In this document: positions 6,301 through 55,428 of the stretch, piece by piece
How positions within the stretch are numbered: position 1 is the stretch's first letter
Layout of the letters: every line of letters begins with the position of its first letter
The notes under the pieces: generated by a model
Databases searched by the model: none
Told to the model about the DNA's origin: nothing
The model's input: only the letters and a program-made list of their open reading frames with translations
Made by a program: the position numbers and the translations under genes
Source: Mytilus edulis
Lineage: Eukaryota
Direction: 5' to 3'
DNA: 64,000 nucleotides
Assembly (NCBI RefSeq): GCF_963676685.1
Contig: NC_092353.1
Span: 59,024,001-59,088,000, forward strand

Positions 6301-9300
6301 TATGTTCAGACAATTTTACAGTTGATGATATTGTTTTTCTTAAGATATAAAAGGAAGATAAGAGCAGGACAAAACATTTAATGTCCATGAGATGTCTTCT
6401 AAGTATACTGTTACGAGTACTCAAGTGAACCAATAGTAGTTATTTGTAGGACTTAAATGCGCACATATATTTACTGTATATTCAATGAGCTGACTAATAT
6501 TACGTCCAATGATTGTACGGGAAAGTCTGTTTGAAATATGTGTAGGCTAAAATTGATGTAAAATGTGAATACAATAAACATGATAAAGTCTAGCCCTATA
6601 CATGTATGTCTTACAGGTTCATCTTTTTAAGAATGAATATATTTTCGTGAGAAATTCTAAAATGTAAAAATTGAAATGGGGAATGTGACAAAAACAACAT
6701 GACCATAGGGCAGACAACAGCCGAAGGCCACCAATGGGTCTTCCATGTAGCGAGAAACTCCCGCACCCGTAGGCGTCGTTCAACTTGTCCCTTAAAATAT
6801 ATTAGCTTGCTGAATGTTTGCTTGCTTTTTTTAAGACATGATGAATTATGTAACACTTCATTCTTTCCAATTAAATATTATCACTTACATGGGTTACAGG
6901 TATTATAATCTGCGTTGTAGTAGTGATTTGTTCCACATCGACATAAACCAGATGCACAACTAAGGGGGGAGAAACAACTGCTTACTGCTGTCGAACAAGT
7001 TTCTTCGTATCTTCCAACTGTGAAAAAAAGCATTCATGAAATAAATGTTTATCATATTTGATGATGAATTAAGTTTGAATAATTTAAAATCTTTTTCAAT
7101 TAGATTAAAATATATTTACGTTTCCAAAAAGGGTATTTCCTCAATTATTCACTCTAACAATTTGAATAAAAAAAACAAGTAACTTGATATTTACTTGAAA
7201 CTTTTATTTCTAGAAAAAAAAAACTTATATGACAATCTTGATATAGATAAGCTCTTATGCATTTTAATAGCGTTTCCCTATTTTACCTCACCATATGCAT
7301 GATAGTTCCACGTGCTATATGTATGCAGTGTAACAGTTCGCACTATTGTTTTCTCTTATTTAGAAAAAAACATAAGTACAGACTAAAATAAGAACTTGCA
7401 CGCTTTGTCTGTTTATCAATCTATTATTTCATAGATAAAATAGGAAACCGCTCTTCTTTTACCATTTATTACTATACAAACACAATTATGCTGATCAATA
7501 GATATTTCCGAAAAGTCTCTGTACCGACTGGTGAAACCGAATTAAATAAATGTGAACTTACGGCTCATTTGTTCCATAAGGCATTTTTGTAAAAAAAAAA
7601 GGCTATTGCTCCGCCGATAATAAGCTTCAAGATTTCAATACAGATTTTTTAACAGCACAATTTAATCTGATGTATTTTCAACCTCAAATATGTACTTTTG
7701 AAAGTTTTCCTACACCTTGGTCGTCAGTGTACAATACAATAACAATAACATATGTGATAGAGACGTTTATAGTTCCACAGATATAAAAACATGTGTTACG
7801 TTGAGTAAAATTGGGAGTGGGAAAAGCAGTATGAGTGATGATTAAATTTACATACAAATTTTTTCCAACAAATTAGTTTAAGAGGTCGGGTGGCCATTCT
7901 GACAACATTAGACAAAAGGACGCACTTCGGGAAAGTGGCAACCTAGAGGAGCTTCTATAAACAAAAATTGAATGTTTCCAAAAAATATGTCAACCAATTT
8001 TAAACCTTCATTTCAATCCTGGTATCTATGATGAGTTAATTTAGTAGTTTTAACTAATCGATGCTAAAAGGCTGTGATTGCTTTTTAAAAAATTAGATAA
8101 GGCTACCAGATAATTTCTTTTGTAAAAAAAACGAAAGAGCAAGTTTTTGTACTTCACTTAAAAAAAAGAGGAAATTCAAAAAATGAAAAAAGGTACTAGG
8201 TTTAACCATTGTTACAGGATAGACAATAACAGTATAGACAAATGTCTATTTGTATGACACTTTTTATAATAAGTATAAAATTGTCCTCCTGTATTCATGT
8301 CATTAATTTGTTGGCAACAGCATAAACAGACATGAAAAAAGCGTACGTTCAAGGTTTTTCTTTTTTTTCTTTACAATGGCAATAGCTCAAAGAAACATTG
8401 ACCTAAATGAGCTAAGAAAATTTGACAAAACTTGTATAACTATATATAAAAAAGTAAAATCACAAAATAGTAAACTCTGAGAAAAAAATTTAAAACAGAA
8501 ATTCTCTAATCTAATGGCAAAATTAAAATCTCAAACGCATCAAACGAATGGATATCAACTGTTATATTTCTGATTTTATACAGGCATTTTCTTATGTAGA
8601 AAATGGTGGATTCAACCTGTTTTATAGCTTTATAGCTATTCCAGAAAAAAATGTATGGGGGGGGGGGGGGTTAGAAGGCAGTTTTTGTCAGCACCCGCCA
8701 CCCAGACAATTGTAATTGAGAATTATAGTGCATTATAGTGTGAAAAGTTGCTCTGATAGCCATCACCCATGTATTATTAATATAATGTGCCTTCCAACAC
8801 CCCCCCCCCCCTCCCCCCATACATTTTTTTCTGGAATAGCCCTCAATCATAAATCGCTAATGTTTAGCTCAAAAGTGGTAGGAAAAAGTAAATTGTTTAC
8901 CTAAATTGACGATACAGGTGAAGGCAATATAACATCGTCCTAAAGGTTTATAAATATAATTAACGTATTTCGAATAAATGATGTTATTGTCATATTTTAT
9001 CCTTCCAACTTTAGTAATAAACACCTACATGGGTTGCAGGTATTGTGATCTGCATTGTAGTAATGGTTTGTTTCACATTCACATAAACCAGAGGCACACA
9101 TGAGGGGAGAGTAACAACTGGTTGCTGCTGTCGAACAAGATTCTTTATATCTTCCAACTGTAAGAAAAGGCAATCATGATTTAATTGATTAAAGTTGCAT
9201 TTAAATTTACATAATTGAAAATTTTCGAAAATTAAATTTGAAAACTTTCACAATTACTCAAACTGATAATCACTCATTGATTGAACAATGCAAAACAACT

Positions 9301-12300: not shown

Positions 12301-15300
12301 CTTCACAATCTAAAAACACAAATCAAATTATTGAATGAGGGCTTATATTGTTGATACATTATTATTAGTTGAATAACAATTTTCGTGATTTTTTTTAGGA
12401 TACAGGTGAACCCCGAATTAAACTTTCAACGAGTAACAAATTGTTGGCAATAACAAGAAAATTGAATAACCACGAACATGTTAGTTTTCTTTAATTCTTG
12501 AAAATTGATATCCTAAAAAATAAAAGAAACCACAGTATGTTGAGCATGTCTCTTAAAACTTTTTTCATGATTAAAAATGGTTTATGTTTATCTGAATCCA
12601 ATGCTTATGGTAAATAATCGTTTGGTGTATTTGAGCTTTTGATTGCCATTTAAATAGGGACTTTCCGTTTGTAATTTTTAACCAATTGAACATTTTTTCC
12701 GTTTTTTTTTTCACAATATGACTTCGAGCTGATGTTGACAGGAAGGGGATTTCGACCTATCTGCCTTAAACTAAAGGACAATAAACACAAAGAATTTAGC
12801 GTATATTTATTAAAATAAATATTACTGAGTTTAAACAAAATTAGTTTATGAAATAATTGTACTATTCTAAATAAAGGCAACAGTAGTATGCCGCTGTTCA
12901 AACTCATACATCCATGGACAAAAAACAAAATCGGGGTAACAAACTAAAACTGACGGAAATGCACCAAACATAAGAGGAGAACAACGACACAACACTACAA
13001 TGTAACACACACAGAAACGGACCAAGCATCAGACAAAAGAAAGATTATTTTTGCATGTGTTTTCTAATTTGACTGTGACGAAGTAAATGAAGATTTTGTA
13101 ACTGCTGCCGCACAGGTTTTTTATAACTTGAAATCTATAAGTAGATTTACTTTCTTAGAGTGAGTCTGATAATATGTATAACTTTAATTGAAATTATTGA
13201 CGTTTCCACTTGCAATACAAGCACCACCGTAAGGCGAATCATTCAAAATGTCATGAAACAGTCGAAGGGGCAGTTCGGTAAATGTACTGATTTAACGAAA
13301 ATTCTAAAGAATAAAGATGCAAAACAAATATGTTTTGTGTTGTTAGAAATATTTGTTCGTTAAATACTTCATTGTAGTGACCTAAATACAAATTTAAAGT
13401 ATCAATTTCTGTCGTTATTCCTCCTCTTTACCGAATAAGAGGATATTTTGCTTTATAGCCACATGTGTGTAGATGGAATAAATTCAATTGAAATAATTCT
13501 GATACATAAAAGGTTCTTCAGTGTTTGCTTTTGGAGTCATGTGTTAATGCTATTGGTTTCCAATGGACAAATCAGTTATATTATGTCAATTATTTTTATT
13601 TTGAAAAAAAAACCAACATTGTAGCAATTTTAAAAATAATGAAAACATTGAAATTTGTCTGAAGTCATAGTTACTTAATTTCGTCAAAAGAAGAATGGTT
13701 TTCTGAAATATTTTTTTTTCAAACTATTTATATTTACTTCACAAAATGTAACAAAAATGTGTGTTTGCTAATCGTAAAAAGATAATATTAAAGAATTTAA
13801 TAAACAAACTCTTCTAACAAAGCTACGTTAATTGAAATGAATAAATTATACAATCCCTTTCATTGAATTACAAATCTAATTTGACTTTGTCCCAACTCAT
13901 TTGCGATACGTTTCACTGTGATAGATTTTGAGATACCAGAATAGGTGTCTGATCTATACACACATTGATTATGTTCCCTTCTCGATTGTGCCATATTGAC
14001 TTTGTATGTATTTCCATATCGGCTGATGCAACACAGAAGGAGACGCTTACCATATCATTGCACCTTGTTTCGCTCTTCTTTGAGTTTGCGTGATTCCTTT
14101 CCATTTTAGTTTTACATTCTAATTCACCATCGTTTGTTCAGGGTTTTTTTAATGGATAACGTCACCATTTTTCATGGATAACGTCTTCATTAAGAATGTA
14201 CGCGCACGAGCAGATAACGTATGACAGATTTTTTATATAGGATTTGACGTTTTTTTTCTGTCAGTTTTGTTTTAATGGAGATAACAATATTATCAATTGA
14301 TGCCGTCGGATCTTAAACATGTTAAAATACAATGTTGTTATCTCCTAATTCGTTTCTTTTGGGTTTATTTAGTAGGTTTTAACATAGAAAAACTACTGTG
14401 ATTAAACATCTTTACATACCACAGAAGGGAATATTACAATAATTCCATTCGTCATCAGGGTCCGTGGTATAACACCAGGGTGAGGATTCACCGTCTGGAT
14501 TACGACAATAGTTATGTTTAAATGCTGATACGAACGTAAAGTTGTTAGGAGGATTAGGAGTTTTTTCATCCCACCTTTGACAGATCGTGTTGGTGACAGT
14601 TACGCTGATTGTTCCTCGATATTCACTACCTGCTGATGTCGTCTTACACTCACGACAAAAGGGAATATTGCAATACTCCCAACGGTCATCAGGGTCCGTT
14701 GTATAACACCAAGGCGAGGAATCACTGTCTGGATTACGACAATAGTTGTGTCTATATTTACGAACGGACGGATAGTTTTGAGGATAATGAGGAGTAGTTG
14801 AATCCCATCTCTGACAGGTCCTACCGCTGCTAGTCACACTAATTGTTCCTCGATATTCCGTTCCCTCGGCTGTTGTCTTACACTCCTCGCCTACAAAATT
14901 CCAATTGCAGAAGATGATATAACTGATGAGGATAGTTTTCTTTGCATTACAGTATATTGCTACCTTAGATTGCTATGTATTTAGTAATAAGACCTGGTGT
15001 TTTAATCGTATAGAAAAAACAACAGATAATGTGATTACCAATAAATTTAAGTCAAAATCCTTAATCACACAGGAATATTTGGTAAAATCAGAACTATGGG
15101 CTTCAATGATGTTGATACTCATAAAGCGCCATTAAAGTAAAAACAAGAAAGTAGTGGTTTTTTTTCAAAATATCTCTGTGCAGTGATATTGGATATGTTT
15201 CAATTTTTAACAAGTGACCAAATTTATTAACACTTGTTATGATTTAAAAGTAGGCAGCTATGAAAAGTATGCACAGAACTAAGATATAAAAAAGAAGATG

Positions 15301-21300: not shown

Positions 21301-24300
21301 TTTTCGATACTAGGCCATTGAAACTTTGGCGGGAAAATTTCTCCCTTGCCTTTTCATATCTTTATCATTGACAAGTTTAAGTTCTCAAAAACTATTAAAG
21401 GATAACAACGATTTTGTAAGACTTTTACGGATGGCTTATAGTGATTCATGTTAAAGATTTATAAAGAGAAAAAATGGGGCCAATGGACTTTTTTTAAGGC
21501 TTTCAAATGGATAAAACCAGAGGATTCCGAAAGGATTCCGAAAATCTGACTAAAATTCCAAAACATTACAAGCGAACTTCCTTCAACTGAAAACATGACA
21601 AGCGAACTTCCTTCAACTGAAACTTATTTGGACCAGTGTCTGTCTAATATGTACTTATTTATATAGCTTCTTAATGCCTCAAGTTTTATGTCAAACATTG
21701 AGAAATTTAAGCAAAATTACAGACGTTTGTATCAAAAACACAAAAGTACACAGCTAGGGAAATACATTGATTTACATTAAGTGTTGTTTTATATAAGGAT
21801 ATAACACCTGGTTTATTTATTGACCAGGCGTTTGCATTTTCACATTAGGACTGGTTTTCTGTCAACCAGGCGTACTCATTTAAATATTACTCTGGATTCA
21901 TTTATTTTCGTGGGTATCAATAACCATGGATAAAGGAAAAATTGTATGTTCATGGATATTTAATTTTGTGGTTTTGCTGAGGTCTGCATACAGGTCTATA
22001 GAAAATTTGTCATTTGTTTAAGAAATAATTGATGCAGTTTTATGTGCAGTTTTTTTGTATGTAGTTTTAACCAGGGAAGGCATTATATTCGTGATTTTAT
22101 TTGCTCGAGCGATAGTGAGGGCTAAAATAACACGAATATAATGCCGACCAATGCTAAAACAACAATAAAGAATATTTTGCATCAATTATTTTTTATTCTG
22201 ATTAGGACAATTAAGGTAATTTCTATGTCCTATGTGTATAAGTGTAGAAGGTTTGTGTACGCTCTTCCACGAAACTACGTTTTGTCTGTAAACAAGCAAA
22301 TGACTTGCATTGTGATTTTTCAGAAGGAGGAGTTTGAACAGCCAGCATGAACGGACGTATCTAGGTCAAATATGTCAATTTTTAATTGCAACACATTACA
22401 AATAATAACAACAAATGCATCACAGTTTAGAAGTGTTTTAAGTTAATGAAATATATCAAATGCATGCCAATTTGATCAAATTCATTATTCTGCAGTAGTC
22501 AATTTACGCATGGGCAAAAAAAAAATTATTGGATTAAGAGCATGGGTTTTTTAAAAAGCGAAAGAAGCACGTCATATTAGAATGAACATTTAATTTCTTA
22601 GTTTACCCGTACCCACGAAGTCCAGGAAAATTGGTATCAAACGAATATAGTTAGTTGCTTTCAAGGCACATTCCTGTAAATGAAATCAATATAATTGAAA
22701 CAAATCTGATACATAGGATGTACCTCAGGGTTGGTTTTTTCTCTTTTGCAGTCAGGTATCAATGCTATTGGAGTCAAATGGAGAAATATACAATAATTGT
22801 TACAGTCATTTCCGAATGTCAAAATTGAAAATGCTAAAAAAAATATTTTGGTGCAAACAGTTTTCCAAATAACGAAAGCATCGGAAAAATTTCTGAAGTT
22901 ATAGTAAGTTGATCTGTTTTTTGTAAGATGATTATGAAACGGTGATTTTCTTAAATATTGCAGGCCTTTTATTAACCAGAAAAAACAAAAACTTTACAAA
23001 AAGGAATTTTCTTATCTTAAAAATATCATTTTAAAAAGTTCCATAAACTAAAAACTCTTCAATCAAATAAAGGCGGAAGAACGATTAATATTGTGATAAT
23101 CGTTGAAAGGTATTTATACGGTCCCCTCGATTGATTTACTTGTTTAATGTGTCTATATGTATCAACTCACTTTCGATAATTTTCACTGTGTTAGATCTTG
23201 ACATACGAGAAGTAGTGTGTGATCTATACACACATTGATTATGTCCTTTCCGATTGACTGATATTGACTTAGTATGGATTTGCATTTCGAATGATTCAAC
23301 ATACTCAACCTATAATTGCACATGATTTCGCTCTTCTATGAATTAATGTGATCTCTCCACACTCTAGTTTTACTTTCGTATCTTTTAAGTGGATTGATGG
23401 AGTTTTAACATAGTTAAACTTCTGCTATTTAAAATATATACTTACTACAGAAGGGAATATCACAACGATCCCACGTGTCATCAGGGTCTGTGGTATAACA
23501 CCAAGGTGACGAATCACCGTCTGGATTACGACAATAGTTATGTTTCAATGCTGACAAGAACGTAAAGTTTTTAGGAAGATGAGGAGTTTTTACATCCCAT
23601 CTCTGACAGATCTTGTTGCTGACAGATACGCTGATTGTTCCTCGATAATCAGAACCATCTAATGTCGTCTTACACTCACGACAAAAGGGAATATTGCAAT
23701 ACTCCCAACGGTAATCAGGGTCCGTTGTATAACACCAAGGTGATGAATCACCGTCTGTATTACGACAATAGTTGTGTCTATATTTACGTATTAACGGATA
23801 GTTTTGAGGATAATGAGGAGTAGTTGAATCCCATCTCTGACAGGTCCTACCGCTGACAGTCACGCTGATCGTTCCCCGATATTCTGCGCCCTCGGTTGTC
23901 GTCTTACACTCCTCGCCTACAATATTCAAACTAGACAAGATGATACAATTAATGGGGATTTTATTTGTTGTTTTTTTTTATCTTAGCAGTAGTTGGCACA
24001 AATCTTTGGAATTTTGGGTTATCAATGCTCATCAGCTTTATACTTGTTTTGCTTTCTTGATATTTTGATCTGAGCGTTAATGATAGGTCTCATGTAGACT
24101 AAACACGCGCGTCTTGTGTATCAATATTATATAAGTCTGGTACCTTTCATAACTATTTTTGTCCCTTACAGTATATTACTACAATTACACCACCATCTGT
24201 GGTAAAGGGAAGAGTTGAAAGTTGCGCAGACGTTATCAATCCCGCAAACTTCTTATTGTGGCTGTTCTTAGTCAGGGGTATGTTCGTCAAGGATTGCCGT

Positions 24301-27300
24301 ATGTTGCTGACTTTCATTTATTTTTATTTTCATTTATTTTTCGTTTAAATCATGCTGATTTTGAACTTTTTTACATTTGTCCTTTTCGGGATTTGTTTCA
24401 ACTGACTATATGGTTATTCGTAAAGGGCTAATCTATCAAAATGTATGCAGGGTAGGCAGGGACTTTCAAAATATCCCTACAACCAAAAACTTTTTTTTAG
24501 ATAATTTTGCATAAGTGTAATAGACGCATATTGAAAAAGACCCATGGCCCACCTTCAATAATTGAACTTCTCTTCCTACCTTCTAACATACATTTTTATT
24601 AAATATCCCTAAATACTATTGTGATTCCGAATATGTCAAAAAGAGAGGTAAATTGATATCAACGGAATGTTTTAACGCATAAGTTGGAACAGACTTACAA
24701 TGCCCGGGCAATAATGAAAACCGACACAAACACAAATAGTAAAAAAACTATAAAAAAAAGGAGCAACACGAAACCTTTTTTTTTCTTCGATTTTTTTTTT
24801 TTTTTTGTAATATATAATGATATATTTATAAGTTTGTTAGAATTGATTGACACTTTACTTTATCAACGCAACTGTTCACTTGTTGACAGTAAACAGTAAA
24901 GTACTAGTGTTCAGAAGTCCTAAATCGGGAGAAAACAAACTCGAGTTACAAACTAAATCTGAGAGAAACAAATGAACTATAAGTATAGGAGGGAATACAA
25001 GGAACAGCAACACTGAATTACAACAAAACCATACGTCAATATACATCGAAAATTACTATATTTGATGACAACTGCCATGTTCCTGACTAGGTACAGGACA
25101 TTTAAGAAAATGGTGGGTTAAACCTGGTTAAATGGCTAGCCAAACCTTTAAAAATCACCATCTTTTTGCGGTTTTTTTGTTGGCAATATGTATTTATAAG
25201 TTTGTTCAATGATTTTTGTCAAATAACACAAGAACTTATTCTTTCTTCACGAGCATATGTGATACACGCTATCCAATATCTGTTTTGTTTATTTGTTTAA
25301 TTTTTAGGGACAGTTGGTGGTATTACGAGGGGATACCTTCTGTGTTGACATGAATATCAATAATGTGATCATTTTTATAAATTTCCTGTTTACAAAACTT
25401 TGAATTTTCGAAAAACTAAGGATTTTCTTATCCCAGGCATGGATTACCTTAGCCGTACTTGGCACAACTTATTGGAATTTTGGATCATCTATGCTCTTCA
25501 ACTTTGTACTTGTTTGGCTTTATAAATATTTTGATTTGAGCGTCACTGATGAGTCTTATGTAGACGAAACGCGCGTCTGGCGTACTAAATTATAATCCTG
25601 GTACCTTTGATAACTATTTATACCACTGGGTCGATGCCACTGCTGGTGGACGTTCGTCTCCGAGGGTATCAACAGCCCAGTAGTCTACACCTCTGTGTTG
25701 ACATGAATATCAATAATGTGATCATTTTTATAAATTTCCGGTTTACAAAACTTGGAGTTTTCGAAAAACTAAGGATTTTCTTATGCCAGGCATAGATTAC
25801 CTAACCGTATTTGGCCCTTTTTTTTTGGAATTTTGGATCCTCAATGCTCTTAAATTTTGTACTTGTTTGGCTTTATAAATATTTTGATCTGAGCGTCACT
25901 GATGAGTCTTATGTTGGCGGAATTATGTAGACGAAACGTGCGTCTAGCTTACTAAATTATAATCCTGGTACCTTTGATAGCTATTTATGTGTAAACCTGT
26001 TATGGCCCTTTTCAGGGTGTTGTTAACTGTTATCATAGATCAATTAAAGCTGTTAACTGTTTTCAACCCAAAATGTAACTGTTAGCCAAAATCGAGGTGC
26101 TGTTTAAAACATGTTAACTTATTGTCCCCTTTATTACCACTTTCTTGATATCTTATCATGACAATGACTGGAACAAAATATTAAGAATTGTATAATAAGC
26201 GATATTTTTTTAAAATGAAAAAATAAATAACTTAAAGGTTCCACAAAAAAAAATGTTCCATAATAATAATTTATGATACAAAGGGTAAGGTCGGCCACTA
26301 ATTTCGCTCAGTATCTATAATCACACAAACAAATCGCCTAGGAATATCTGGAACGATCAGAACTATAGATTTCAATATCTAAAAAGCATTATTCTAGGAC
26401 AAACACAAAATATATGTACTGACATGCGACATGTTTCAATTTTAAACAAGTGACTGCATTTACTTCTTGTGTTGACTTTTAGAGCGAGAACAGAACTATA
26501 GAATAAACCCTTATCATCTTCTTTAAAGGTGCCAAAAGTATGCAGTTATGAAAAGTATGCAAAGAATATTCTTATTATTTAACTTATTGTATAAGTGGAT
26601 TTTTTTTACCTTATCATGCATGAAATACCTCGTTTGCTTTTTAGTTGCGTTAGTATTAGTTGCGTTAGAATAAGTTCCATTCTTACCTGCTTTACAAATT
26701 TTATCCATTGGGTCACGAAACTGCAATCTAGGGTCTTGACAATCTATAAAAAAGAATATTATTTCAACTGGGCAATTATCTTGAGCATGTCTCTCTTTAC
26801 TTTTTTTTTTGCTAGGAATAAATATTTTACACGATTGTTTGATAACATTGCGTAAAGACTATAACATAATGATATAAACACGATAACATAATTTACAATA
26901 TGACTTAGATTTCTGTTGAACAGTTAGTTAATTTCGACAAATCTATCATTCAACAAAGTAATAAGTAACGAGAGAGTACCTGGCTTGTTATTGTTTTAAA
27001 TCTTAGAGTAGATCGTCCTTCTAACAGCGAGTTAGACAATTGTTACAAAACAGTTATACAATTACTTTACCTTGTCTTTCGAAGATTATACAATTTGACT
27101 TTGATTTGATTATTTGATTGATTTTTACTTCTCCTTTTCAAGAACCTAATAAAGGATCCGTGTTAAGTTATCTAATATAGATAAATGTATGAAACCGGAG
27201 ATTAAATGTTTTATTTCGATGACAAACTATTGCAGTAGTATTTCGTAGCAAATAAGTTCAGAGGGGCGTAACTCATAGAAAAAAACCTAAATTATAATTT

Positions 27301-30300
27301 CTTGTCGATATGCGCATCTACAAAGTATGTCTTTATTACAAAGTGTCATGAAATTCTGTTGTGTTGATTCAGAGGAGTTGTGATGACAAACTGTTTCAGT
27401 AGTATATTGAAGCAAATAAGTTCATAGGGACGTATCTCCTAGAAAAAATTGAATCATAATCTCCTATCAATATGCATATCTACATAGTATGTCCTTATTA
27501 TTTGAAAATGTTTCGTGGAATTCTGTTGTGTGGTTTCAGAGAATATTCGATGACAAGAACAGGACTGACCGACGGGTCAAAATCATCATATCCTCCGTAA
27601 CGTCGTTGCGGGGTGTATAATAAATGTAAATGCAACGGTGGAAAGAAGTTTGGTTTGACCTGTACATGCAATGATTTTATACAAGAGGCAATAATATCAA
27701 ACATGTTTGTTTGCTGAAACTAATGTAGCAAATTTCTAAATGACATATATACATGGAACTTTATTTTGCAATTTACAGTAAGTTCATTTCGTCCAAAAAA
27801 AATATTGAACAGTGGTTTACTAAGGTTTTTCTCAACCAGGATATATTTCAACTTCTTACAAAATAACAACAAGTAATTTTGCCGATCTTTGAAATGATCA
27901 TATGAAATAATTTAAATACCATTAGCTGTTCCAACAAAACTATAAGAAATAACGACTTAAATTGATACTTTAATTCACCTGTATTGGTCGACCAATATAA
28001 TATGTCAGTGTTTAAATTCAATTGAGATACTTTTCACTGTGTTCTTGCGATTCAAGAAGAATTTTCTAATGAATTATAATCGTAGATGATGCAACAAAAG
28101 AGACGCTTACCCTACTATCAACGCACCTATTTTAGCTCTTCATTCAATTCGTGTGATGTCCTCTCATTTTAGTGTTTCACTGCTGATTTTTTTCATCTTT
28201 GTGGATTTAATGGACATTAACATCGGTTAACTACTGTTACTAAAATCTATACTTACCACAAAAAGGAATATCGCAAAAATCCCATTTGTCATCCGGATCC
28301 ATGGTATAACACCAAGGTCCGCTATCTTTGTCGACGATTGGATTACGACAGTAGTTGTGTTGATATTTAGATACGTCCGTAAAGTTTCGAGGACGATGAG
28401 GAGTTTTAACATCCCATCTCTGACAGCTCACGTTAGCGCGAGTGACGCTGATCGTTCCTAGATATTCAAAACCTTCTGCCGTCATTTTACACTCAAGACA
28501 ATAGGGAATAGTGCAATATTCCCAACGCTTATCAGGGTCAATGGTATAACACCAAGGTCTGTCCTTATCGCTATCAGTTGGGTTACGACAAAAGTTGTGT
28601 TTAAATGTATCTACTAAGGCATAGTTTGTAGGAGAATGAGGAGTAGTTGAATCCCACCTCTGACAGGTCCTGCCTTCATCAGTTACGCTGATTGCCCCTC
28701 GATATTCAGTACCTTTATCTGTTCTCTTACACTCATCGCCTGCAATATTCAAACAAACGAAGATTATGAAATTGATGCGGATCATTGTCCTTTTTTTAAC
28801 TGTGTATTGAAACTTTATATTGCTATATATCATACATGAACTGATCCGTCGTCGTTATGATTATAAAAGAGTATTTTCCTCGTTCACTTTATCGCTAAGA
28901 TAATATAATATCGTTGACTTTGTAACTGTATTGTCAATTTGTTTGATTGGAATTACAGGCTTTGTTGTGTCGATCTAAACAGTTATGGCATTTTCAGCTT
29001 ATTCTTTGTTGGTTTTTTTTGTTGTACTTTTTGCCCCTAAGCAGCATATCTAAAGATAAGGAAAAGAGTTAAGAGCTTAACCTTGCCCCTTCTAAATATG
29101 CCTGTTCCAAGTCAGGAGCCTATACATGGTTGCTGTTTGTTGTGGTCTTGTTTCTTTTTCAATTTGTGAGTTTGAATATCTCTTTATTGCGTCACCAAAA
29201 CGGAGTTTTGAAAACTTTATTTTTTTGTCCCGTTTCTTATTATTAAGTCACCAAAACGGAGTTTTGAGGACTTATTGTTTTGTCCCGTTTCTTGTTATTA
29301 TTCTTATTTTTCTCTTTCTGACCCCTTAAACTGTCCTACCATTTTTTTGGAAGCAGTAGAGGATGGAACTTTATATTTTTTCTGTGTATGAGTCTGTATC
29401 ATGGGGGTTGCAGAACCCAATGTCCATGATACCAGGGTGTCATTTTTGCATAATTAGGGGGGCTCAAAGATGGTTGGGGTCAATTTTTTTTTTACATTTC
29501 TTAAATTTTCTACTGCATATAGAGTAGACGGAATTATGATTACTATTAGGATTATTTTGAGACACATGTCTGCTCCTATATGGAACTTATTTTATTTCAG
29601 TAGGAGGTCTCATTGGCATAATTTTAGGGGGTGATATTTCATAGAACATTCCGAACATCATTGTTAAATTTATTCTAGAGACATTAAATGGTATATGATG
29701 GTATATAATTATAGAGGGAACAAATTGCAGTGGAGATTTGACTTACAAATATTCAAAATGGCCGCCGTTACCATGGAAACAGCAAAAATACGAAAAACTT
29801 CAAAATGCTGAAAATTTAATGAAACTTATAACAAATGTTGCCTAGCTTATGTAGACTTGACTTTTGAGTTTGGAATTTTCAAAATGGCCGCCGTTGCCAT
29901 GGAAACAGCAAAAATGTCCAAATTTCAAAATGCCTCAAATTTGATGAAACTTAAAGCAAATGTTGCCTAGTATATCTGGACTTGACTTTTGAGTTTTGAA
30001 TTTCCAAAATAGCTGCCGTTACCATGGAAATGGCTCAATTGTAAAAAAAAAATTAAAATTCTTCATATTAAATAAAACTTTACACACACATTATCTGGCA
30101 TCATGGATACTTCAGAACAATGATGTTGTGTCCGTTTTGGTGACTTTTGTGTTAGCATCCTAACACAGGATTACTTGTTATTCTTTTTCTTTTTTTTTGC
30201 TCCCCCTTGAAACTGTCCTACCATTTTCTTGGAAGTAGCAGAGGATGGAAACTTTATTTTTTTTCTGGGTATGGGTCTGCACCATGAGGGGTGCAGACTC

Positions 30301-33300
30301 ATATTTGCATAATACCAGGGTGTCAACTTGGCATAATTAGGGGGGGGGGGCTCAAAGATGGTTTGGTCAATTTTTTTTTACATTTCTTAAATTTGCTACT
30401 GGATGTAGAGTAGATGGAATTATGAATACTTCTATGAATATTAAGAGACACATGTCTGCTTCAAAATGGACCTTTTTATATTTCAGTAGAAGTCTCCTTG
30501 GCATAATATTAGGGGTGTGAATTTTCATAGAACTTTCCAGAATATCAATGTTAAATTTATTCTAGAGACATTTAATGTTATATGATGGTATATATTTAAA
30601 AAAAAAAAAAGAAAATTGCAATAGCTGTTAGACTTTGGAATTTTTAAAATGGCCGCCGTTACCATGGAAACAGCAAAATACAAAAATCTCCAAAATGCTT
30701 CAAAGGAGTAGGTCCGGTAAGGGCCGATTTTGGCCCCAAATTTCAGTTTCATCTAACGAGATATTTAGGACACTTTTTAAACACTTAAGTGTCTATTTCA
30801 ATTGATTCGATTAGTTTATGTTAAAGATTTTAACTGATTCAGTCATTAAAAACGCTCCGTTTGAAGCTTAAAAATGAAAAATCTATCAAATATGCCAAAA
30901 AACGTCACTTTTCAGATGGTTTTCGTCAAAAATGAAAGTGGCCGCATCCGTGTTCATCCTCAACCTTTATATATGTTATGTATTATCATCAAATACAACT
31001 TACATTTCAATATTATGAATGAACACGAATGCGGCCACTTTCATTTAAGACGGAAACCGTCTAAAATTTAACTAAAATGCTATAATTGTGAAGATTTCAG
31101 TAATTAAGCATGACTTTATGATGCTAGTACATGATATATGTGCATTGTATTGTCAAAAACAGCACATATTTATGTAGCAGAAGCCTTCTACTTTCCAAAA
31201 TATAGCTAAAAGATTACATTTTCACAACTTTGCAAAACTGCTTAATTTTGGGGCCAAAAAGGGGTCTTACTGAACCTACTCCTTTAATGAAACTTATAAC
31301 AAATGTTGCCTAGCTTATATAGACCTGACTTTTGAGTTTTAAATTTTTTAAATGGCCGCCGTTGCCATGGAAACAGCAAAAATATGAAAAACTTTAAAAT
31401 GCTTCAAATTTCATGAAACTTATAACAAATAATGTCTGGCATATGAGACCGTGACTTTTCACTTACAAATTTCCAAAATGACAGCCGTAACCATGGAAAC
31501 AGCAAAAAATATGAAAAATGCAAAATGGTTTTATTAAAATGAAATCAAGGATTACGCAGAACAATAATTTGTGGTCCGTTTTTGGTGACTTTTGTGTTAG
31601 CATCCTTACACAGGATTACTTGTTATATTATGCTTCTCTCAGTGTAACACTTACATCTTCAACAAAGAACTAAGCGAGCATCTTGACAATCAACAGAAAG
31701 AAGACACAAAAATGAGACGCGTATCTAAACACAATTTTATCTTGCAATATTTTTATTTTTGTTATTTCCGAAATATGAAGATGTGGTATAATTGTCGATG
31801 TTCTTCAACGTAAAAAATGATAACAAAATTATGATCATGAGTTTGTCTCATTAACTGATGGACAAATGAACTTAATTTTGTCAACTCATCCTAATGATAA
31901 ACACATACGTGGGTGACATCTGTTATCATGTTCGTTGTAGAAGTGCGCTGGTTCACAATCACATACACTAAGCGCACAAATTAAAGGAGAGAAACAACTG
32001 CTTACAGTTGTCGAACAAGGATCCTGGTAGCTTCCAACTGTAAAATAAATCAATCGACATTAAATTGTGTGATGCTCCATTTATTTTTAGATAATCTATT
32101 ATTTTGGTTAACAAGAATCATAGCGAAAATTTTAACATTGGTTAATTGAATCACTCTTAAAATATGAACAAAGACATGGACAGTCTTAACTAATGGGGCT
32201 GGTCACTACCGACTTTATCTTGGTCAACCAGGATCATAGCAAAAATTATTTCATTCGTAAATTGAATCACTCTTAAAATATGGTCAAAGACAGGGACTGT
32301 CTAAACTAACATGGCTGGTCACTGCCGACTTTATCTTGGTCAACCAGGATCATAGCAACAATGATATCATTTGTTAATTGAATCACTCTCTCTTAAAATG
32401 TGGTCAAAGTATGTGTTAACTAACAGGGCTGGTTACTACCGACTTTATTTAATAACTACGTCTCCTGTGTAAAACTAGTATCATACTATAAGCTAAGTAT
32501 CCTGCCTTTGATATACGAAGCTGGTGTTTTATTGGATATTTCTATTACAACTACATTACAATTAAAAAACATTTCAAATCATACAAATCACATGGAGAGT
32601 CTTAACTGATGGAACTGGCCACTACCGTCTTTATCTTGGTCAACTAGAATCATAGCAAAAGTTATATCATTTGTTAAGTGTATCACTTTTGTAATATGAA
32701 CAAAGACCTGGACAGTATAAACAAACGGGGCTGGCCACTACCCACTTTATTTAATAACTACACTTCCTGTGTAAAGCCTGTACAAAACAAAATAAACAGC
32801 TGCGCTACAAGCGCATGATACGCTCTTCGTCTTCGTCTCTTACAGTTTTATGCAATAATCATAGATATTTTCTGAGATACAGCGCGACATGTAAAACCCT
32901 TTTTTTTTACAAAAAACTCAAACAAAAAATTTCAATCATCATCGAAAATTATACAGATCTTTAGATTAATATAACTAAAAAATGTGTAAAGTTTGAAGCA
33001 ATACTCTTAATTGTTTTTGAGATAAGGCGCGACATGAGAAAAAATACGCCCCCTGTTATAATTTTAAAGTCCTGTAACCATGGTAACTCAAAAAGATTAA
33101 ACCTTATTCTAACCAAAAAGTATATAGATCGTGTTTCCATCATAAGAAACAATCATTTTAAGTTTCATGAAATTTGGATAAGTGGTTTTTAAGTTACGCT
33201 GCAACATGTGGACGGCGGACAGACAGACAGACGGACATTTGTATACCATAATATTTTCCATCAAAATTTTGTCGGGTGATACAAGTCAATCGATAGTTTT

Positions 33301-36300
33301 GTGAATACAAAGCATTTCATCCAGACGCATGAAAAAAAAATTGAAGACGACGTTTACTCGCGTACACGTCATGTTACTGCTGCGTTAACGATAACGTTCT
33401 CTGCTTCAACTTCAAAATTTCAAAAAGTTGTTATCAAAAGAAACATTACTTTCACGTTTGGAAAAATGTGTACAAAGTTTCAAGATGATTGGACTTCAAC
33501 GTCATCAAAAACTACCTCGATCAAAACTTTAAACCTCAAGCGGGACCGACGGACGAAAAACAGTACTAACGGACGCACAGTCCGACAGAAAACATAATGC
33601 CTATAAATGGGGCATAAAAACTTAGCAAATATTTCAAAGTCAATAGACCATCACTAAGAGAGAGGGGCCAAATAATCTCCATTGGAATGAGATATGCCAA
33701 AGTTATACAACTGCAAACCATTTGTCATCAACGTATTACTAGTGGTTCCCTATAAACTGACCTAATCACAAACTAATACATAATAACATGACAAAAATTT
33801 CAAAGTCGCTAGACCATGACTGAGGAAGCGGGCCAAATAATCTCCATGGAAACCAGATCTGATAATGCTTATACAACTGCATACAAATTATCATTTACTT
33901 ACCATTAGTGGTTCCCAATAAACAGATCTAATTACAAACTAATACATGAAAACTAAACAAAAGTTTCAAAGTCAATAGATTATAACTGATTTGGCTGGGC
34001 CAAATAATCGCCATGGTAGTGAGATGTACCAATACTAATACAACTACATACCGAATATCTTTGACTTACCACTAGTGGTTCAGCATAAAATTAAACAAAC
34101 TTATACATTGTTGACGCCGACAAACCCGTATCTAGCATAAATATGTCTCGCTTTTTGACGCAGTCTAGCGAGACAATAATAATCATTTATTAAACACATA
34201 TTATATTACCTCAGGTGCCTTTAGTTGCACTTTAAATTTAAATTAAATACCTACTTGCTTTACAAATACCATCGTCTGGGTCGCGATACTGTGTTTCAGG
34301 ATTTTCACACTCTAAAACATAAAACCATGTAATTGTATCAGGGCAGTTATGATGAGCATCTCTCTATGTACCCTTTTCTAGAAAAAACATAAAACACGAT
34401 TTATATTTGATCAAATTGCTTACGAACAAAACATGCTGGTCTAAAGCAAGTTACACTATGAGCTTTTGACTTTGAGTTACCCAATTTTCATGATTATTTT
34501 GTTCACCAATTTTCACTCAGAAGTTATCGTCCATTTTATTTAAAAAAATGAACAGTCGTTCTATGCACGTAGTTGGGCAAATATGATGGGAAGGTTTATG
34601 GCTCTGTTTTGTGTGTTCCAAATACCTTAGTAAAGCCCATCCCATCAGGAAAAAAAGTTTGATCACATTAAATTTATTAGGTTCGTATTTTGGCTTAAAC
34701 TCAACCTATAAACCAGAGAAAGATAAAAATAGTATGGACATTAATTGAAGGAATATGCTTCGATGAGGTTAAACATACCAAACAGCTGACCTCTGAAGCA
34801 TGTTAAAAGTACAGAAAACAAACAGGGGTGTTTTGGGTAGAGGCTGTAATATTGATAATATAAAATTCGAACTAAAAAATCAAAATATGATGATGATGAT
34901 GACTTAAATAATAAAATCACAAGTCTTTCGGTCAGCTCATTTTTTGATAAATCGTTTCAAGGGTGTGATGAAATTATGCCCAGTCGCCCGACTTGTACAA
35001 TTGAACACCCGGACAAGAAATTATGTTTGTCTGGGTTGCCCGTTGATACGAAAAAAAATATAGAAAACAAAGTTGAAATCGAACAAAAACCGAATTAATT
35101 TAATAAACGCATCAAGATGTTTAATTTATGTGAAAGAAACCAATGATCAGCGAGGAAAAAGATATAGTTTAAGTCAAAACATCAATGTTCATGGCGATAA
35201 ATATTAAATAACACCGGAAATAGATCTATTGCTATAATATTGTGAAAGTACGTTTATTCGTTAGGAACCATTTTTTGTGGCTTTCGTTGATGAATTAATT
35301 CATGAATTTAAGTCTCCAACAAAATATAATAACTGTTGTGCAAATCAAGACATTGTTTGACTTCATGGATATGGGCATGCCATAAAATCTAGAGAATAAA
35401 TCAAATATCGTCAAAATGACAAAATTCACTATGAAGTAAAACTGCTTGCAGAATCATACCCTATGCTGTGATAAAGTGTTAGTTTTATATCATTATACTT
35501 CTCATACGAGAAATGATAATTTCATATCGATATCGGGCTTGCTTTTGATAAGAATTCATTTTACAATTCAAGGTACATTTATAGCATAAATTATGTTTAT
35601 GACTCAATTAACACCTTTGATAGTCTTTAATCTGTTAATCACACAATCTCAGGTTAATTTGTGTCATCACTTCTGACAACATGTCTGCAACAATTCAAAT
35701 GTTTACGTAGCAATTGCCTTCAATCGAGACAATTTGTAATCACAGATGAAAGCAATTATTGTATTTCAAATTTAATGTTTCACTGTTCGTTTGTATCGTC
35801 TGAGTTAATTTGATAGACCTTTACATTGGTAAAATACTTTTATTAAAAATCCATACTTACCACAAAAAGGAATATCGCATAAATCCCATTTGTCATCCGG
35901 ATCCATGGTATAACACCAAGGTCCGCTATCTGGGTCGACGACTGGATTACGGCAGTAGTTGTGTTGATATTTAGATACCTCCGTAAAGTTTCGAGGACGA
36001 TGAGGAGTTTTAACATCCCATCTCTGACAGTTCACGTTATTGCGAGTAACGCTTATAGTTCCTAGATATTCAAAACCTTTTGTTGTCGTCTTACACTCGA
36101 GACAAAGGGGCACATCGCAATAATCCGAACGGTCATCTGGGTCGGTTGTATAACACCAAGGTCTGGCCTTATCGCCTGGATTACGACAAAAGTTGTGTTT
36201 ATATGTATCTACGAATTCATAGTCTGAAGGATGATGGGGGGTATTTGAATCCCATCTCTGACAGGTCTTGCCGCTTTCAGTAACGCTCATTGCCCCTCGA

Positions 36301-38858: not shown

Positions 38859-41800
38859 GCCACAGACCAGAAAACATAATGCCCCTCTACTATCGTAGGT
38901 GGGCATAAAAAAGGGCAATGAAAGAACACAAAAGGTATGTTTGGTAAAATATAGTTTTCCGATGTGCAAAGACATGTAACGAAGTTTATTCTCGTTCAAA
39001 GCTCGAATGAAAACTGTTTGTACCATGCACTTTTCAGTATAAAATCTGTCGAATTCCTTTTCATGTTGGACCATTACGATATACTTTATTAGTTGTTTTA
39101 TTGATTACGACTAAAAATTCATTATTCTCAGATTAGTTAAGATTGAATACCCTTCCAGACCAATGGCATACCGATTTATGTAATGTTCGCACATGTCGGT
39201 ATAATGTTTTAACAAGTTTTGTTTGTGTGTGCACACATGGAGGTTATAGTGAAGGAATTGGTTTCATATTAGATATATTCAATTAGAGTTGGTAATATCA
39301 ATCTCTCAAAATTTACCAGAACATAATTCGTTATGCTCGTACGATAAATGAGCAGGCGACTCGTGAAAGGTCTGAATTTTAGTCAGATGGTTTTAACCCA
39401 CGTTGTAGCACTTATACATAACATTTGGTACTAACTTTCTTTTTTTGTAACATGTGTATAACTTAGTATTGTTGTGAGATCTTTGAGCCATTAGAAACTC
39501 TTAAGAAAAAAATATGAAAATAAAATGAGAAAATCACCAAAAGTCGCTGTCAGATCAACAATAGAAGGCTCGGTGCACAATAAATATCCACAAACATACA
39601 ATGTATGTAAGATTAGATGACATAAAACCAATTATTGATAATCATTGTTTTCTGTTATAAATCGATTGAGAGCAAAAAATCCAAGTTACTGAAGTGCAAC
39701 AATTCTCATGATATTTTAGGATAAAATAACTTCATTTCAACCATAATTTTATCATTAATGTACATGAATGATCTTTAGGTCAATAAAAGTGAAATAAAAA
39801 AAAATCATGGCCAATTAAATTTGAAATTTGATGCTGCTATGTAGATTTTTATTGTGACACACAGTAATTTGGTCCTGATACTAACAGCTATAACGTATAT
39901 GTTGTTGATGGGGATTACCTGCCGAAGAAGGTCGGTGGCACCTTGGGCACTCCGTGGGCCTAAACCTTTTAAAATTGATCGCCGATAAAAACTTAAGTAG
40001 TCAAAAGGTTGTAACCGACAATTGCGCCAAACACCAACAATTGATCAATCATCTCTATTTAACAATGTATGTATATAAACTATTCATGGAGTGTATGAAG
40101 TGTTATTGCAAATTGCTAGAATTCAATCTAAAAAAATAATGTAAGTAAATAAATAATTCCGAGTCTCAATTTACATGAGAGAACTACGTGGTTTTATAGA
40201 ACTAAAATACCTTGACCAGAAGAAGGTTTGGGGGCATCTATAATACTAAAATTACGAAGTCAAATTTGTCAGACGTCATCACGTAAAAACGACGAATCAA
40301 AGAATTCAGCTTTATATATAACTAATATAGAACAAAGGTGTAGATTAAAAATTACACCACTCCAGGCCCTTTTGTTTTCCACGTAATTAATATTGCCAAT
40401 AATTAAGAAGTTCCGGGGCGAGTCCGATACCAATAGTATATTCACCTGTTACCTATTACCTTATCTGTACGTTCCGCATCTAACAGGTGCACCACCAAAC
40501 GGTGTATTTAAGATTTTGTTATATACACGGGTCATAATCACAGGGCTGACACTACTAAATTCAATCATTGTCAAATTGATCCCTATTGTAGTATTTTAAT
40601 CAGTAAGACTTTCTAAGATGACCATACAAGTACTAAAAATCTGGACTTAAAATAAGGCGTATAGGTACAGTTTTCAATTTGTTAGCGGGCTTGACGTAAA
40701 ACAGTGAATCAAAGCATTCAACTTTATTTATAACTAATATAGGACAATGCTGTTGATTAAAAAATACTCCATTTCAGGACCTTTTGTTTTCCAAATAATT
40801 TATATTACCAATAATTGATAAGTTCCAGGTCTACGGGTTCATACAGAAAGATTTTGAAAGCAGATAAAACTGTGCATCTTATAATCGGCATGACTTTATC
40901 AGATGACAATACCAATATTAAAATAAGGCTTACGCATAGTTATATACATTAATTCAGTCACGGACCCACGATATCACGGGTGTGTTCTAGTACTTATAAT
41001 AATTGTCACTTCCCCAATCAATGCAAGATTTAGCATCAGCAACCAAGAAAACATATAAATATTGAAATATTGAAATATCAAAGTTTCGATCAAAAATGTT
41101 ACCCTAAAAACATAAATATGACCTTTGTATTCTGTCTTTCACACCAAATTGACAGTTGGACCCCGGATGACGGCATTTGTGTCATTATAACTAGATTTAT
41201 TGAAGAAGAATTAAAATATAAATATATTATATATCAATATATACATGAATAACTTTCATGTTTGATTGTATTTAAATAATACATCTTAAGTTGATCATCC
41301 TAAGCCTGCCGAAATACTAAAGTAGTGTTGGTCATATCATGCAATATGGGATGACTGGTTGCATAGGTGTTTTGTCATATCAAAAAAAGTGCCAATATTT
41401 TCTATTTTGTTAGAACATCATAAAACATGTCACAAGTATTTCAAAGAATAGCCATTAGAAAGTGGTGAGGTCAAGGTTGTTTAAACCTTTCACAGCTTCA
41501 AAATATTTAATTAAAACTGTTATCACAGAAATATGTATCGCATTTTTTGTAGTTTCGATAATGCAAAATGTTGAAATTAGAATAGCAAAATAGCAACTCT
41601 TTAACATGTAAAAGAGGGACGAACGATACCAGAGGGACAGTCAAACTCATAAGTCGATAATAAACTGACAACGTCATGGCTAAAAATAAAAAAGACAAAC
41701 AGACAAACAATAGTACACTTGACACAACATAGAAAACTAAAGAATAAGCAACACGAACCCCACCAAAAACTAGGGGTGATCGCAGGTGCTCCGGAAGGGT

Positions 41801-44800
41801 TAGTAGATCCTGCTCAACATGTTGCATCCGTCGTGTTGCTCATGTTATAGCAAATCCGGTAAATAGTCTAACTCTGTAGGTCACATTCATGAAAGGGTAA
41901 GGGATTGTAGTTACGACGTAAAGAACATATTCGATATCATCTGTGCGACGTTTTGCAAAAATTCAAAGTCATATACGTGAAAACTAAGCAAAAGTTTCAA
42001 AGTCAATAGACCATAACTGAGGGGGCTGGGTCAAATAATCCCCATGGTAGTGAGATGTGCCAATACTAATACAACTGCATACCGAATATCTTTGACTTAC
42101 CACTAGTGGTTCACCATAAAATTAAAAAAATATATACATTGTTGACGCCGACGACCCCTTACCTAGCATACCTATGTCTCGCTATTTGACTCCCTCAAGC
42201 GAGACAATAATTATCATTTATTATACAAATATTATATTACCTCGTGTGCTTTTAGTTGTACTTGATTTTAAATTAAATACCTACTTGCTTTACAAATATC
42301 ATCGTCTGGGTCGCGATACTGTGTTTCAGGATTTTCACACTCTAAAACATAAAACCATGTAATTGTATACGGGCAGTTATGATGACCATCTCTCTATGTA
42401 CCATTTTCTAGAGGCTGTACTATTAATAATATTAAATTCACACTAAAAAAGCATAGTATGATGATAATGATTGAAATCATAAAACCACAAGTCTTTCGGT
42501 CAGCTCAGGTATTGATAAATCGTTTCAAGGGTGTTGTAATGCTATGCCCGATCGCCCGACTTGTACAATTGAACACCCGGACAAGTTATTATTTTTGTCT
42601 GGGTTGCCCGTGGATACGTAAAAAATATAGAAGACAAAGTTAAAATCTAACAAAAACCGAATTAATTTAATGAACGCATAAAGATGTTTAATTTATGTGA
42701 AAGAAACCAATGATCAGCGAGTAAAAAGATATAGTTTAAGTCAAAACATCAATGTTCTTAACGATAAATATTAAATAACACCGGAAATAGATCGATTGCC
42801 ATAATACTGTGAAAGTACTTTTATTCGTGGGGAACCAATTATTGTGGTTTTCGTGGATGAATTTATCCATGCATTTAGGTGTCCAACGAAACATAATAAC
42901 TGTTGTGCAAATCAAGACATTGTTTGACTTCATGTATATGGCATGCCATAAAATCTAGAGAACAAATCAAATATCGTCAAAATGGCCAAATGCACTATGA
43001 AGTAAAACTGCAGGCAGAATCATACCCTATGCTGTGATGAAGTGTTAGTTTTATATCATTATTTTTCATACGAGAAATGATAATTTCATATCGATATCGG
43101 GCTTGCTTTTGATAAGAATTCATTTTACAATTCAAGGTACATTTATAGCATAAATTATGTTTATGACTCAATTAACACCTTTGCTAGTCTTTAATCTGTT
43201 AATCACACAATCTCGGGTTAATTTGTGTCATCACTTCACGTCTGCAACAATTCAAATGTTTACTTAGCAATTGCCTTCAATCAAGACAATTTGTAATCAC
43301 AGATGAAAGCACTTATTGTATTTCAAATTTAATGTTTCACTGTTCATTCGTATCGTCTGAGTGGATTTAAGAGACATTTACATTGGTTAAATACTTTTAC
43401 TAAAAATCCATACTTACCACAAAAAGGAATATCGCACCAATCCCAGTTGTCATCCGGATCCATGGTATAACACCAAGGTCTACTATCTGGGTCAACGACT
43501 GGATTACGGCAGTAGTTGTGTTGATATTTAGATACGTCCGTAAAGTTTCGAGGACGATGAGGAGTTTTAACATCCCATCTCTGACAGTTCACGTTATTGC
43601 GAGTAACGCTAATAGTTCCTAAATATTCAAAACCTTTTGTTGTCGTCTTACACTCGAGACAAAGGGGCACAGCGCAATAATCCGAACGATCATCTGGGTC
43701 GGTTGTATAACACCAAGGTCTGTCCTTATCGCCTGGATTACGACAAAAGTTGTGTTTATATGTATCTACGAATTCATAGTCTGAAGGATGATGGGGAGTA
43801 TTTGAATCCCATCTCTGACAGGTCTTGCCGCTTTCAGTAACGCTCATTGCCCCTCGATATTCCGTACCTTTAACTGTTCTCTTACACTCATCGCCTGAAA
43901 TATTAAGACTAACGAAGATAACAAAATTTATTGTCTTGTCTTAACTGGATATTGTTACCTTAGATTGATATCTATCATAAATAAATCGATACGGCGTCAT
44001 TAAAGATTACAAACGAGTATTTACTCGTTCAATTCATCTCTAACTCTTTTTTAATATTGCTGATCTTGTAAATGTATTGTCAGTATTTTTCTTTTTAATC
44101 ATAGCCTGTGTTGTGCGATCTGACGAGTCATGCCATTTTGAGCTATTTATTCGTTGGTTTTATGTTGTACCTTTCACAACTATTCGGCATTTTCTCAGGT
44201 ATGGAGAAGAATACAGAGCTCAACTACGTCCTCAACACTGTCATCTACGTAACTTATGTGCCTGTTCCAAGTCAGCAGACTGCAAGTCAATGATTGACGT
44301 TGGTTGCTGTCTGTCAAATTAAGGAAAAGGTTCACAAACAGCACAAAATGACTTAAAATATTAACTTTTAAAAAAAATTAAATAAAAAGGGCATAATTTT
44401 TGTTCGTAAATGGTATAATTCAAATGCCCTTATGCTCAAAAATATTTCATTTCATAAAAGTACATGATATTCTCAAAAGTAAGCTCATTTTCGATATTTT
44501 GTCAAAATATGACGACAATGGACGATTATGGACATTTTACAGCGTCAAAGCGTTTTGAACACCTAAGCCGCCACCTACGATCCAAAATAATTTGTTTCCA
44601 AAAGATTCCCATTTTTTATACAGAAATCATCATATACAAGCTTTTTGGATTGTGGATGGCAGCCAAGATAAAGTATGCCAAAAAAACTAATAAAATTATG
44701 GCGGGGGAAGGGGGGGGGGGAGGAATTGACCTTAAAATGCAAAGGTCATAGCTTCATAAATTTTAAAGGGAGATACCAAAAGATATATGTGTGTTCTAAT

Positions 44801-55384: not shown

Positions 55385-55428
55385 GCACTAGATGTGCATT
55401 TCGACAATACATGTCTCTTCAGTGATGC
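55385..55428 (-). ncRNA. Type I hammerhead ribozyme (family B, AUC cleavage triplet)
   Basis: GCATCA-CTGAAGA-GAC atgtatt GTC-GAAAT gcac ATC-TAGTGC; one stem I mismatch. Confidence 0.82.

Follow-up and report, generated by a model that had tools for sequence, protein, structure and literature searches.

The 64,000-nucleotide stretch of Mytilus edulis DNA analyzed here (the window) contains, at positions 25337 through 25985 of the plus strand, an AT-rich element (39% GC) that comprises 1.80 units of a tandemly repeated family and over which no open frame of 70 or more codons is listed. This locus is a 5′-truncated, decaying copy of the published Mytilus hammerhead non-LTR retrozyme, and its earlier identification as a mussel retrozyme is borne out by layout, by copy number, and by the published mussel element. 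The original prediction described a dimer; an array is indeed present but falls short of two full units. The element lies antisense to the predicted exons of a kringle-repeat gene, within an intron predicted to measure 2.8 kb (23917-26686), and this anticipated arrangement agrees with the GT-AG bounds and with Pfam Kringle matches. The features of the locus are as follows.

23446-23916, minus strand: predicted double-kringle exon that follows the element's intron in gene sense; Pfam Kringle, two stretches, E 7e-46
25337-25618, plus strand: unit 1, 5′-truncated (covers family positions 73-355); identity to the family majority sequence 96.8%
25540-25583, plus strand: intact type I hammerhead (hammerhead 1), predicted to cleave after C25577; Rfam Hammerhead_1; identical to 6,072 other genomic copies
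25619-25985, plus strand: unit 2, complete and lengthened to 367 nt by a 14-nt insertion; identity to the family majority sequence 88.9%
25625-25681, plus strand: predicted stem-loop common to the 5′ end of Naiad elements; 1-nt deletion and substitutions, same predicted fold, 76 bits with model R1 (see below)
25683-25705, plus strand: second small hairpin, weakened at this locus, then an ATG at the Naiad start-codon position (leader alignment)
25893-25950, plus strand: hammerhead 2, damaged by a 14-nt insertion in loop II, C25939T in loop III, and two substitutions in the stem I 3′ strand (G25946A, G25949T); cleavage site nominally C25944
26687-26743, minus strand: predicted 57-nt kringle-gene exon that precedes the element's intron in gene sense; GT-AG bounds, paralogues at other places in the window

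The kringle gene (12241-52551, minus strand) was built by tandem duplication; its double-kringle exons, at least seven in number, alternate with 57-nt exons that contain cysteine and are paralogous to one another. Next to no reads from four RNA runs match the kringle exons at 95% likeness, and thus the gene model derives from the sequence itself; no RNA holder is listed on record for this stretch. Because thousands of retrozyme copies reside on both strands, the antisense position of the element needs no function. Intronic tandem repeats with periods of 125 to 126, 116, and 166 are found at 29748-30030, 31283-31544, 32099-32389, and 33613-34081.

Unit 2 terminates at the fixed 3′ end of the family. 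The two units mismatch at 22 of 280 sites, compared with a median of 2.3% in 41 other arrays, which marks an older, decaying insertion that is more decayed than typical. Two substitutions common to both units are rare elsewhere (2 of 39 other units and 1 of 41, respectively), indicating that both derive from one template. There is no flanking target-site duplication at the locus, and a candidate stem-loop remnant in the left flank (25296-25335) was rejected because 315 of 6396 control windows score equally high. None of the 15 joints listed, from a total of 826, skips the element to give an empty allele, and the paralogous kringle introns compared provide no alignable empty site. DNA contigs cross the left junction in two of four runs, and the right junction together with the damaged ribozyme in one, possibly the source sample. 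The right flank (25990-26080) is moderately repeated sequence, with DNA depth in the thousands versus approximately 20 for the unique flank.

Two hammerheads and the RNA of the locus

As originally predicted, the full core and stems I through III of a type I hammerhead are present at 25540-25583. A 6-bp stem I is followed by the core CUGAUGA, a 4-bp stem II with a 5-nt loop, and GAAA; stem III consists of an A-U and a single C-G pair capped by the palindromic GCGC loop, and the cleavage triplet GUC places its C at 25577. The Rfam Hammerhead_1 scan proposed earlier as a check yields a supportive match to this hammerhead (33 bits, E 3.3e-6) that nevertheless falls one bit below the gathering score of 34, and a whole-window Rfam scan at the gathering threshold returns no match. 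The 44-nt sequence has 6,073 exact matches (3131 + 2942) in the 1.37-Gb genome versus none for the reversed control, and therefore hammerhead 1 is not a chance occurrence. For the short stretches tested, minimum-energy prediction does not return the hammerhead fold (z of 0.35-1.78), and hence folding energy alone gives no support for it. Judged by its sequence, site 1 would probably cut if transcribed.

A second copy 367 nt downstream with a weakened stem I had also been predicted, and both points hold. C25944 lies 367 nt past C25577, and two of the six stem I pairs are broken, leaving four (-1.9 kcal/mol versus -5.9 kcal/mol for hammerhead 1). Hammerhead 2 retains an unchanged catalytic core and additionally carries loop III as GUGC and the insertion in loop II. 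The 367-nt spacing reflects the 353- to 355-nt family unit plus this private insertion, which the original prediction leaves out and which as a loop II variant has a single genomic occurrence when at most one mismatch is allowed. The inserted region (25903-25928) comprises eight new bases flanked by two copies of a 6-base word and may be likened to a repair or excision footprint.

The short palindromic stem III had been proposed to favor dimeric cleavage. It is indeed suited to a double hammerhead, with a calculated self-duplex of -13.3 kcal/mol and a mixed duplex between GCGC and GUGC copies of -11.4 kcal/mol, but a single cloned mussel repeat is reported to cleave at approximately 0.1/min, with abundant circles present (PMC7229834; Cervera and de la Pena 2020). 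By analogy with a published dimer fold (PMC4209133), each double-hammerhead site would be closed by its own 3′ stem I strand. Cleavage at C25944 would thus need the mutated strand 25945-25950 in the monomer and dimer folds alike, and so copy 1 could not rescue site 2. This damage makes a 367-nt circle from the locus unlikely. A complete hammerhead in every unit, as expected of an active retrozyme, is absent from the locus given the state of hammerhead 2, and on this folding model the copy is likely unable to release unit-length RNA.

The four raw RNA runs have a summed depth of approximately 180 to 530 over 25544-25730 and a depth near zero over most of unit 2 and the flanks. The ribozyme strand is favored by 1.7- to 3.9-fold in three of the four, namely those that look stranded. 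No pile-up of read starts or ends at the cleavage site is listed for these runs, whose short reads render circles indistinguishable from multimers. In one run, 22 reads start at 25578 with other sequence before it, possibly from one truncated genomic copy. The runs carry species label A; the locus flanks differ from its contigs at 11 of 278 sites but almost match contigs of labels B and E.

These data bear on the earlier proposal that a plus-strand transcript of the locus releases a monomer or circle of approximately 367 nt, antisense to the kringle pre-mRNA, through cleavage of the two hammerheads as a dimer. We regard this activity as very improbable. In its favor, hammerhead 1 has no damage, neither catalytic core is altered, a mixed stem III duplex would still be stable, and family RNA is abundant with the appropriate strand bias, but site 2 depends on the mutated stem I strand whatever the fold. 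Moreover, the RNA reads show the family letter at locus-private sites (214 of 215 reads at 25458, for example), and per-strand depth does not exceed 3.3 over 25731-26104 in runs whose species label has DNA approximately 4% different in the flanks and may not carry the insertion. Given the family letters and the label A mismatches, the reads reflect expression of the family and say little about the locus copy.

The retrozyme family and its fixed 3′ end

Family units span 347 to 364 nt, with 41 of 48 distinct units at 353 to 356 nt and 29 of them at 355 nt, and their arrays are dispersed over many chromosomes. Like metazoan non-LTR retrozymes, the family has tandem units in the 150- to 450-bp range, one hammerhead each, a low GC content, and no coding capacity. 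The locus is 74 to 79% identical to subfamily B. Other copies in the window, the single and partial ones recognized by sequence match, are listed below.

23978-24157, plus strand: single or partial retrozyme copy, subfamily A or B
47250-47570, plus strand: single or partial retrozyme copy, subfamily A or B
50849-51044, plus strand: single or partial retrozyme copy, subfamily A or B
51839-52032, minus strand: single or partial retrozyme copy, subfamily A or B
55358-56252, minus strand: 2.55-unit array of a second retrozyme subfamily, with a CUGAAGA core, units of 350 to 351 nt, and the same stem-loop

The copy at 23978-24157 begins approximately 60 nt from the predicted kringle splice acceptor. 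In the array at 55358-56252, the stem III pair is now U-A with the GCGC loop retained, and all three ribozymes are altered.

Approximately 5000 mussel hammerheads in 350- to 390-bp repeats have been described, together with RtcB ligation of a 353-nt monomer construct (PMC7229834; preprint version 10.1101/721605). The 375-nt retrozyme printed for M. galloprovincialis (PMC4918200, Additional file 11) matches subfamily B by eye and has the same layout. It shares with the family examined here a type I hammerhead, an AT-rich tandem unit of approximately 350 nt, and thousands of copies, whereas the locus has a damaged second ribozyme. The consulted parts of both papers name Penelope-like elements only as a strong candidate for mobilization and make no mention of the fixed 3′ end, of the stem-loop, or of Naiad as a partner.

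To document insertion footprints, 120 loci on one chromosome were picked by ribozyme or stem-loop pattern, and 102 distinct insertions were kept after 18 duplicates and low-scoring loci were dropped. The 3′ end falls within 5 nt of the unit end in 84 of the 102 insertions (56 of 67 in the subfamily of the locus) and elsewhere in the other 18, whereas 5′ ends are scattered over the whole unit. The distance from the cleavage site to this fixed 3′ end is 41, 48, 33, and 38 nt in subfamilies A through D, respectively, yet in all four the fixed end falls directly before the stem-loop. With the fixed end 33 to 48 nt beyond the site of cleavage, a linear monomer released by cleavage is excluded as the main template, since nearly all sampled copies run across the cleavage junction; this points to a circle or an uncut multimer as the template. 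A possible run-off of the enzyme at the cleavage site would show as clustered 5′ ends there; four of the 102 insertions have 5′ ends within 2 nt of the cleavage site versus approximately 1.4 expected, in a sample biased by the manner in which loci were picked.

Adjacent units share variants, with a median Jaccard value of 0.43 within 41 arrays and 0 between arrays. Flanking duplications exceed the control maximum at 2 of 40 loci, one of which is inside a minisatellite. Separately, a 28- to 29-nt retrozyme 3′ fragment (L112:3090-3118) resides in one of two tandem copies within a Naiad 3′ UTR, and this natural empty-site pair exhibits no target duplication. The family thus displays a fixed 3′ end, variable 5′ truncation, partial tandems, and no regular target-site duplication, as do nonautonomous Penelope-like elements.

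A structured leader in common with Naiad elements

A screen of 50 GIY-YIG loci against the retrozyme unit identified an element that encodes an N-terminal endonuclease and opens with bases similar to the retrozyme sequence just past the fixed end. Three Naiad families of this type, with open frames of 1053, 1007, and 1000 codons, begin with this same segment, which directly follows their own 3′ junction. Over 71 nt (retrozyme positions 4-74), the retrozyme and the start of the 1000-codon Naiad share 86% identity (E 3e-18). The segment is in equal register to each element's own 3′ junction, and the layout is common to retrozyme and Naiad up to the start codon, such that the retrozyme carries terminal sequence in register with an autonomous element. 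No hammerhead core is found inside units of the three Naiad families. Metagenome contigs contain three further Naiad versions, and at least 40 of 150 listed matches to the closest Naiad have the 1000-codon open frame.

The candidate helper elements have, by eye, an N-terminal GIY-YIG region together with CxC and DKA motifs; Pfam GIY-YIG is above its cut-off for the 1053-codon family and is not reported for the 1000-codon protein. They are assigned to the Naiad clade on these motifs and the missing hammerhead. Published Naiads likewise have the GIY-YIG domain and both motifs, pLTRs, and tandems (Craig et al. 2021, PMC8557442), and the 1053-codon family begins like Naiad_Mgal and equals its length, 4116 nt. 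The words "stem-loop" and "hairpin" do not occur in the main text of that paper, and neither a conserved 5′ structure nor retrozyme partners were seen in the parts consulted. Fragments of these elements, recognized by sequence match, also lie in the window, one of them 190 nt left of the retrozyme.

431-1039, plus strand: 3′ fragment of one of the three Naiad families
8444-8629, minus strand: 3′ fragment of one of the three Naiad families
12871-13022, minus strand: 3′ fragment of one of the three Naiad families
25038-25147, minus strand: 3′ fragment of one of the three Naiad families
41610-41945, minus strand: 3′ fragment of one of the three Naiad families
52854-54019, minus strand: 3′ fragment of one of the three Naiad families

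Model R1 derives from nine family representatives, among which the stem-loop of the locus is absent. It matches the 5′ region in 15 of 21 Naiad loci, some of which contributed to the model, and the six loci that lack a match also lack the shared segment. The 1053-codon family, absent from the model, scores 24 to 27 bits, with one copy at 16. Among 19 canonical loci with a C-terminal endonuclease there is one match, which is inside a separate retrozyme copy, and 78 metagenome loci yield 10 matches at E <0.01. The core motif of the stem-loop has 10,424 genomic matches versus none for the control, and the 30 such loci fetched are retrozymes of four subfamilies plus two Naiad units. Of the 54 published Naiad consensuses (PMC8557442 supplement), at least 11 carry it within their first ~100 nt; the 11 named ones come from oysters, an ark clam, mussels, two acorn worms, and a toadfish, and this count is a lower bound because an exact-text search misses variants. 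One further consensus there, whose header is not displayed, holds the motif as well, and in the published consensuses the outer stems, by eye, remain paired although their letters differ.

Two retrozyme subfamilies (A and C) and three Naiads are predicted to fold into one stem-loop at minimum energy (z of -2.4 to -4.5), identical in both subfamilies and two of the Naiads and nearly so in the third, and three more families have a similar one; Naiad L201 folds no better than its shuffles (z of -1.24). In a MAFFT alignment of the nine representatives, 97.5% of cells pair and 7 of 22 pairs are changed on both sides, a pairing level reached by 0 of 500 shuffles and well above slid controls (34-53%). 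Inclusion of two awkwardly aligned Naiads, giving 11 sequences, results in 94.6% pairing and 9 of 22 pairs changed on both sides. Note that these 9 to 11 sequences are related to each other and that the invariant core pairs cannot covary. The compensatory changes argue for a single-stranded fold rather than a DNA promoter. A pseudoknot or switch in which the invariant CUGCUGG pairs with the outer 3′ strand is not supported, with 95% paired but none of seven pairs changed on both sides. Rfam contains no match to the stem-loop near any gathering (curated) score, and by eye it resembles none of the layouts of HDV-like, twister, or pistol ribozymes.

In the 3′ UTR of the 1007-codon Naiad, we also observed a 240- to 280-nt sense stretch (L147:5193-5433, L148, L149, L150, L157, and L196) that is 73 to 75% identical to the retrozyme and ends near its fixed 3′ end. 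It occurs in all five fetched genomic loci of this Naiad and in one metagenome copy, and its hammerhead core is broken differently in four aligned copies. Its sequence looks like that of a captured retrozyme that was silenced while riding an autonomous element.

A candidate route of mobilization and its alternatives

It is reasonably likely, judging from these sequence relationships, that the locus copy was pasted into the intron by a Naiad-clade reverse transcriptase that binds the stem-loop behind the fixed 3′ end. We also lean toward a reading in which the stem-loop would serve as the Naiad binding and start signal, with circles as the template. Multi-unit transcripts would be cut by their hammerheads and ligated into circles, as published for mussel retrozymes. 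The Naiad protein would bind the stem-loop, which derives from its own 5′ UTR, and nick AT-rich DNA, and reverse transcription would start a few bases upstream of the stem-loop. The enzyme would then read through the intact cleavage junction, either round the circle or along an uncut multimer, and a random stop would generate fixed 3′ ends, scattered 5′ ends, and tandem units sharing private variants, which are the footprints found here.

Naiad becomes a helper candidate because of the shared leader combined with published internal initiation by a Penelope-like protein. The Anolis Poseidon protein initiates internally, needs RNA 3′ of the start, and cuts at ATT, and hammerhead cleavage is dispensable for it (Frangieh et al. 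2024, PMC11167929). Its internal start, its need for RNA 3′ of that start, and its AT-rich targets resemble the route proposed for Naiad. However, Poseidon is a different clade, and its required region is in the first 172 nt of the reading frame rather than in the 5′ leader. Vertebrate retrozymes, like those of mussels, have terminal sequence in common with Penelope-like elements (bioRxiv 10.64898/2026.07.22.740005), and many of their predicted dimers are inactive (eight of nine tested in that study). The vertebrate link is pLTR homology in Xenopus, with Naiads in that sample only in coral, whereas the mussel link is the structured 5′ leader of Naiad, a clade reported to be without canonical hammerheads.

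Shared ancestry of a 5′ leader is no proof of present-day enzyme use, and tandem units with shared variants arise by local duplication too. The stem-loop could be an inherited Naiad promoter or translation element, kept for transcription or RNA stability, while a canonical Penelope-like enzyme bearing hammerheads mobilizes the retrozyme. Penelope and Chlamys do have internal promoters across the pLTR-body boundary (PMC8557442), the genome abounds in canonical families that have long open frames and minimal hammerheads, and the leader is retained up to the ATG. Nevertheless, we consider this explanation unlikely, since the compensatory changes indicate a single-stranded fold and not a DNA promoter, the retrozyme offers no frame for translation, its 3′ end stays next to the stem-loop across four subfamilies whose tails differ, and none of the canonical elements compared carries retrozyme sequence in register. 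A further alternative views the arrays as satellite-like amplification of solitary pseudo-LTR fragments by unequal crossover or slippage, with no rolling circle. Such a DNA-level model, discussed for vertebrate retrozymes (bioRxiv 10.64898/2026.07.22.740005), also predicts variants common within arrays, but it leaves unexplained the dispersal over multiple chromosomes with a fixed 3′ end, random 5′ ends, and fractional unit numbers. Amplification of this type could add to retrotransposition and not replace it, and as the sole explanation it is very doubtful.

Returning to Naiad-driven mobilization, we narrowly favor a broader proposal, namely that a stem-loop of approximately 60 nt with an invariant bulged core, conserved at the Naiad 5′ end in hosts ranging from bivalves to hemichordates and a fish, is where the Naiad reverse transcriptase binds and starts, and that mussel retrozymes are chimeras of this signal with a hammerhead. 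Cutting and ligation would yield a circle that presents the signal just past the start site, and the enzyme would roll round the circle. If true, a clade free of hammerheads drives hammerhead circles.

The locus itself is ordinary, being a single decayed copy among thousands, and the retrozyme was already known. The Naiad leader beside the fixed end, and with it the stem-loop that links retrozyme and Naiad, was not found in the literature searched, although Repbase, subscription journals, and some supplements may hold it. Printed evidence regarding the enzyme that copies animal retrozyme circles consists of co-occurrence and pLTR homology. A named helper clade with many intact copies, a covarying RNA of 60 nt, and an exact predicted start site render the mobilization question testable in an in vitro assay that already exists, and the stem-loop may be a general template signal of a Naiad subgroup across phyla.
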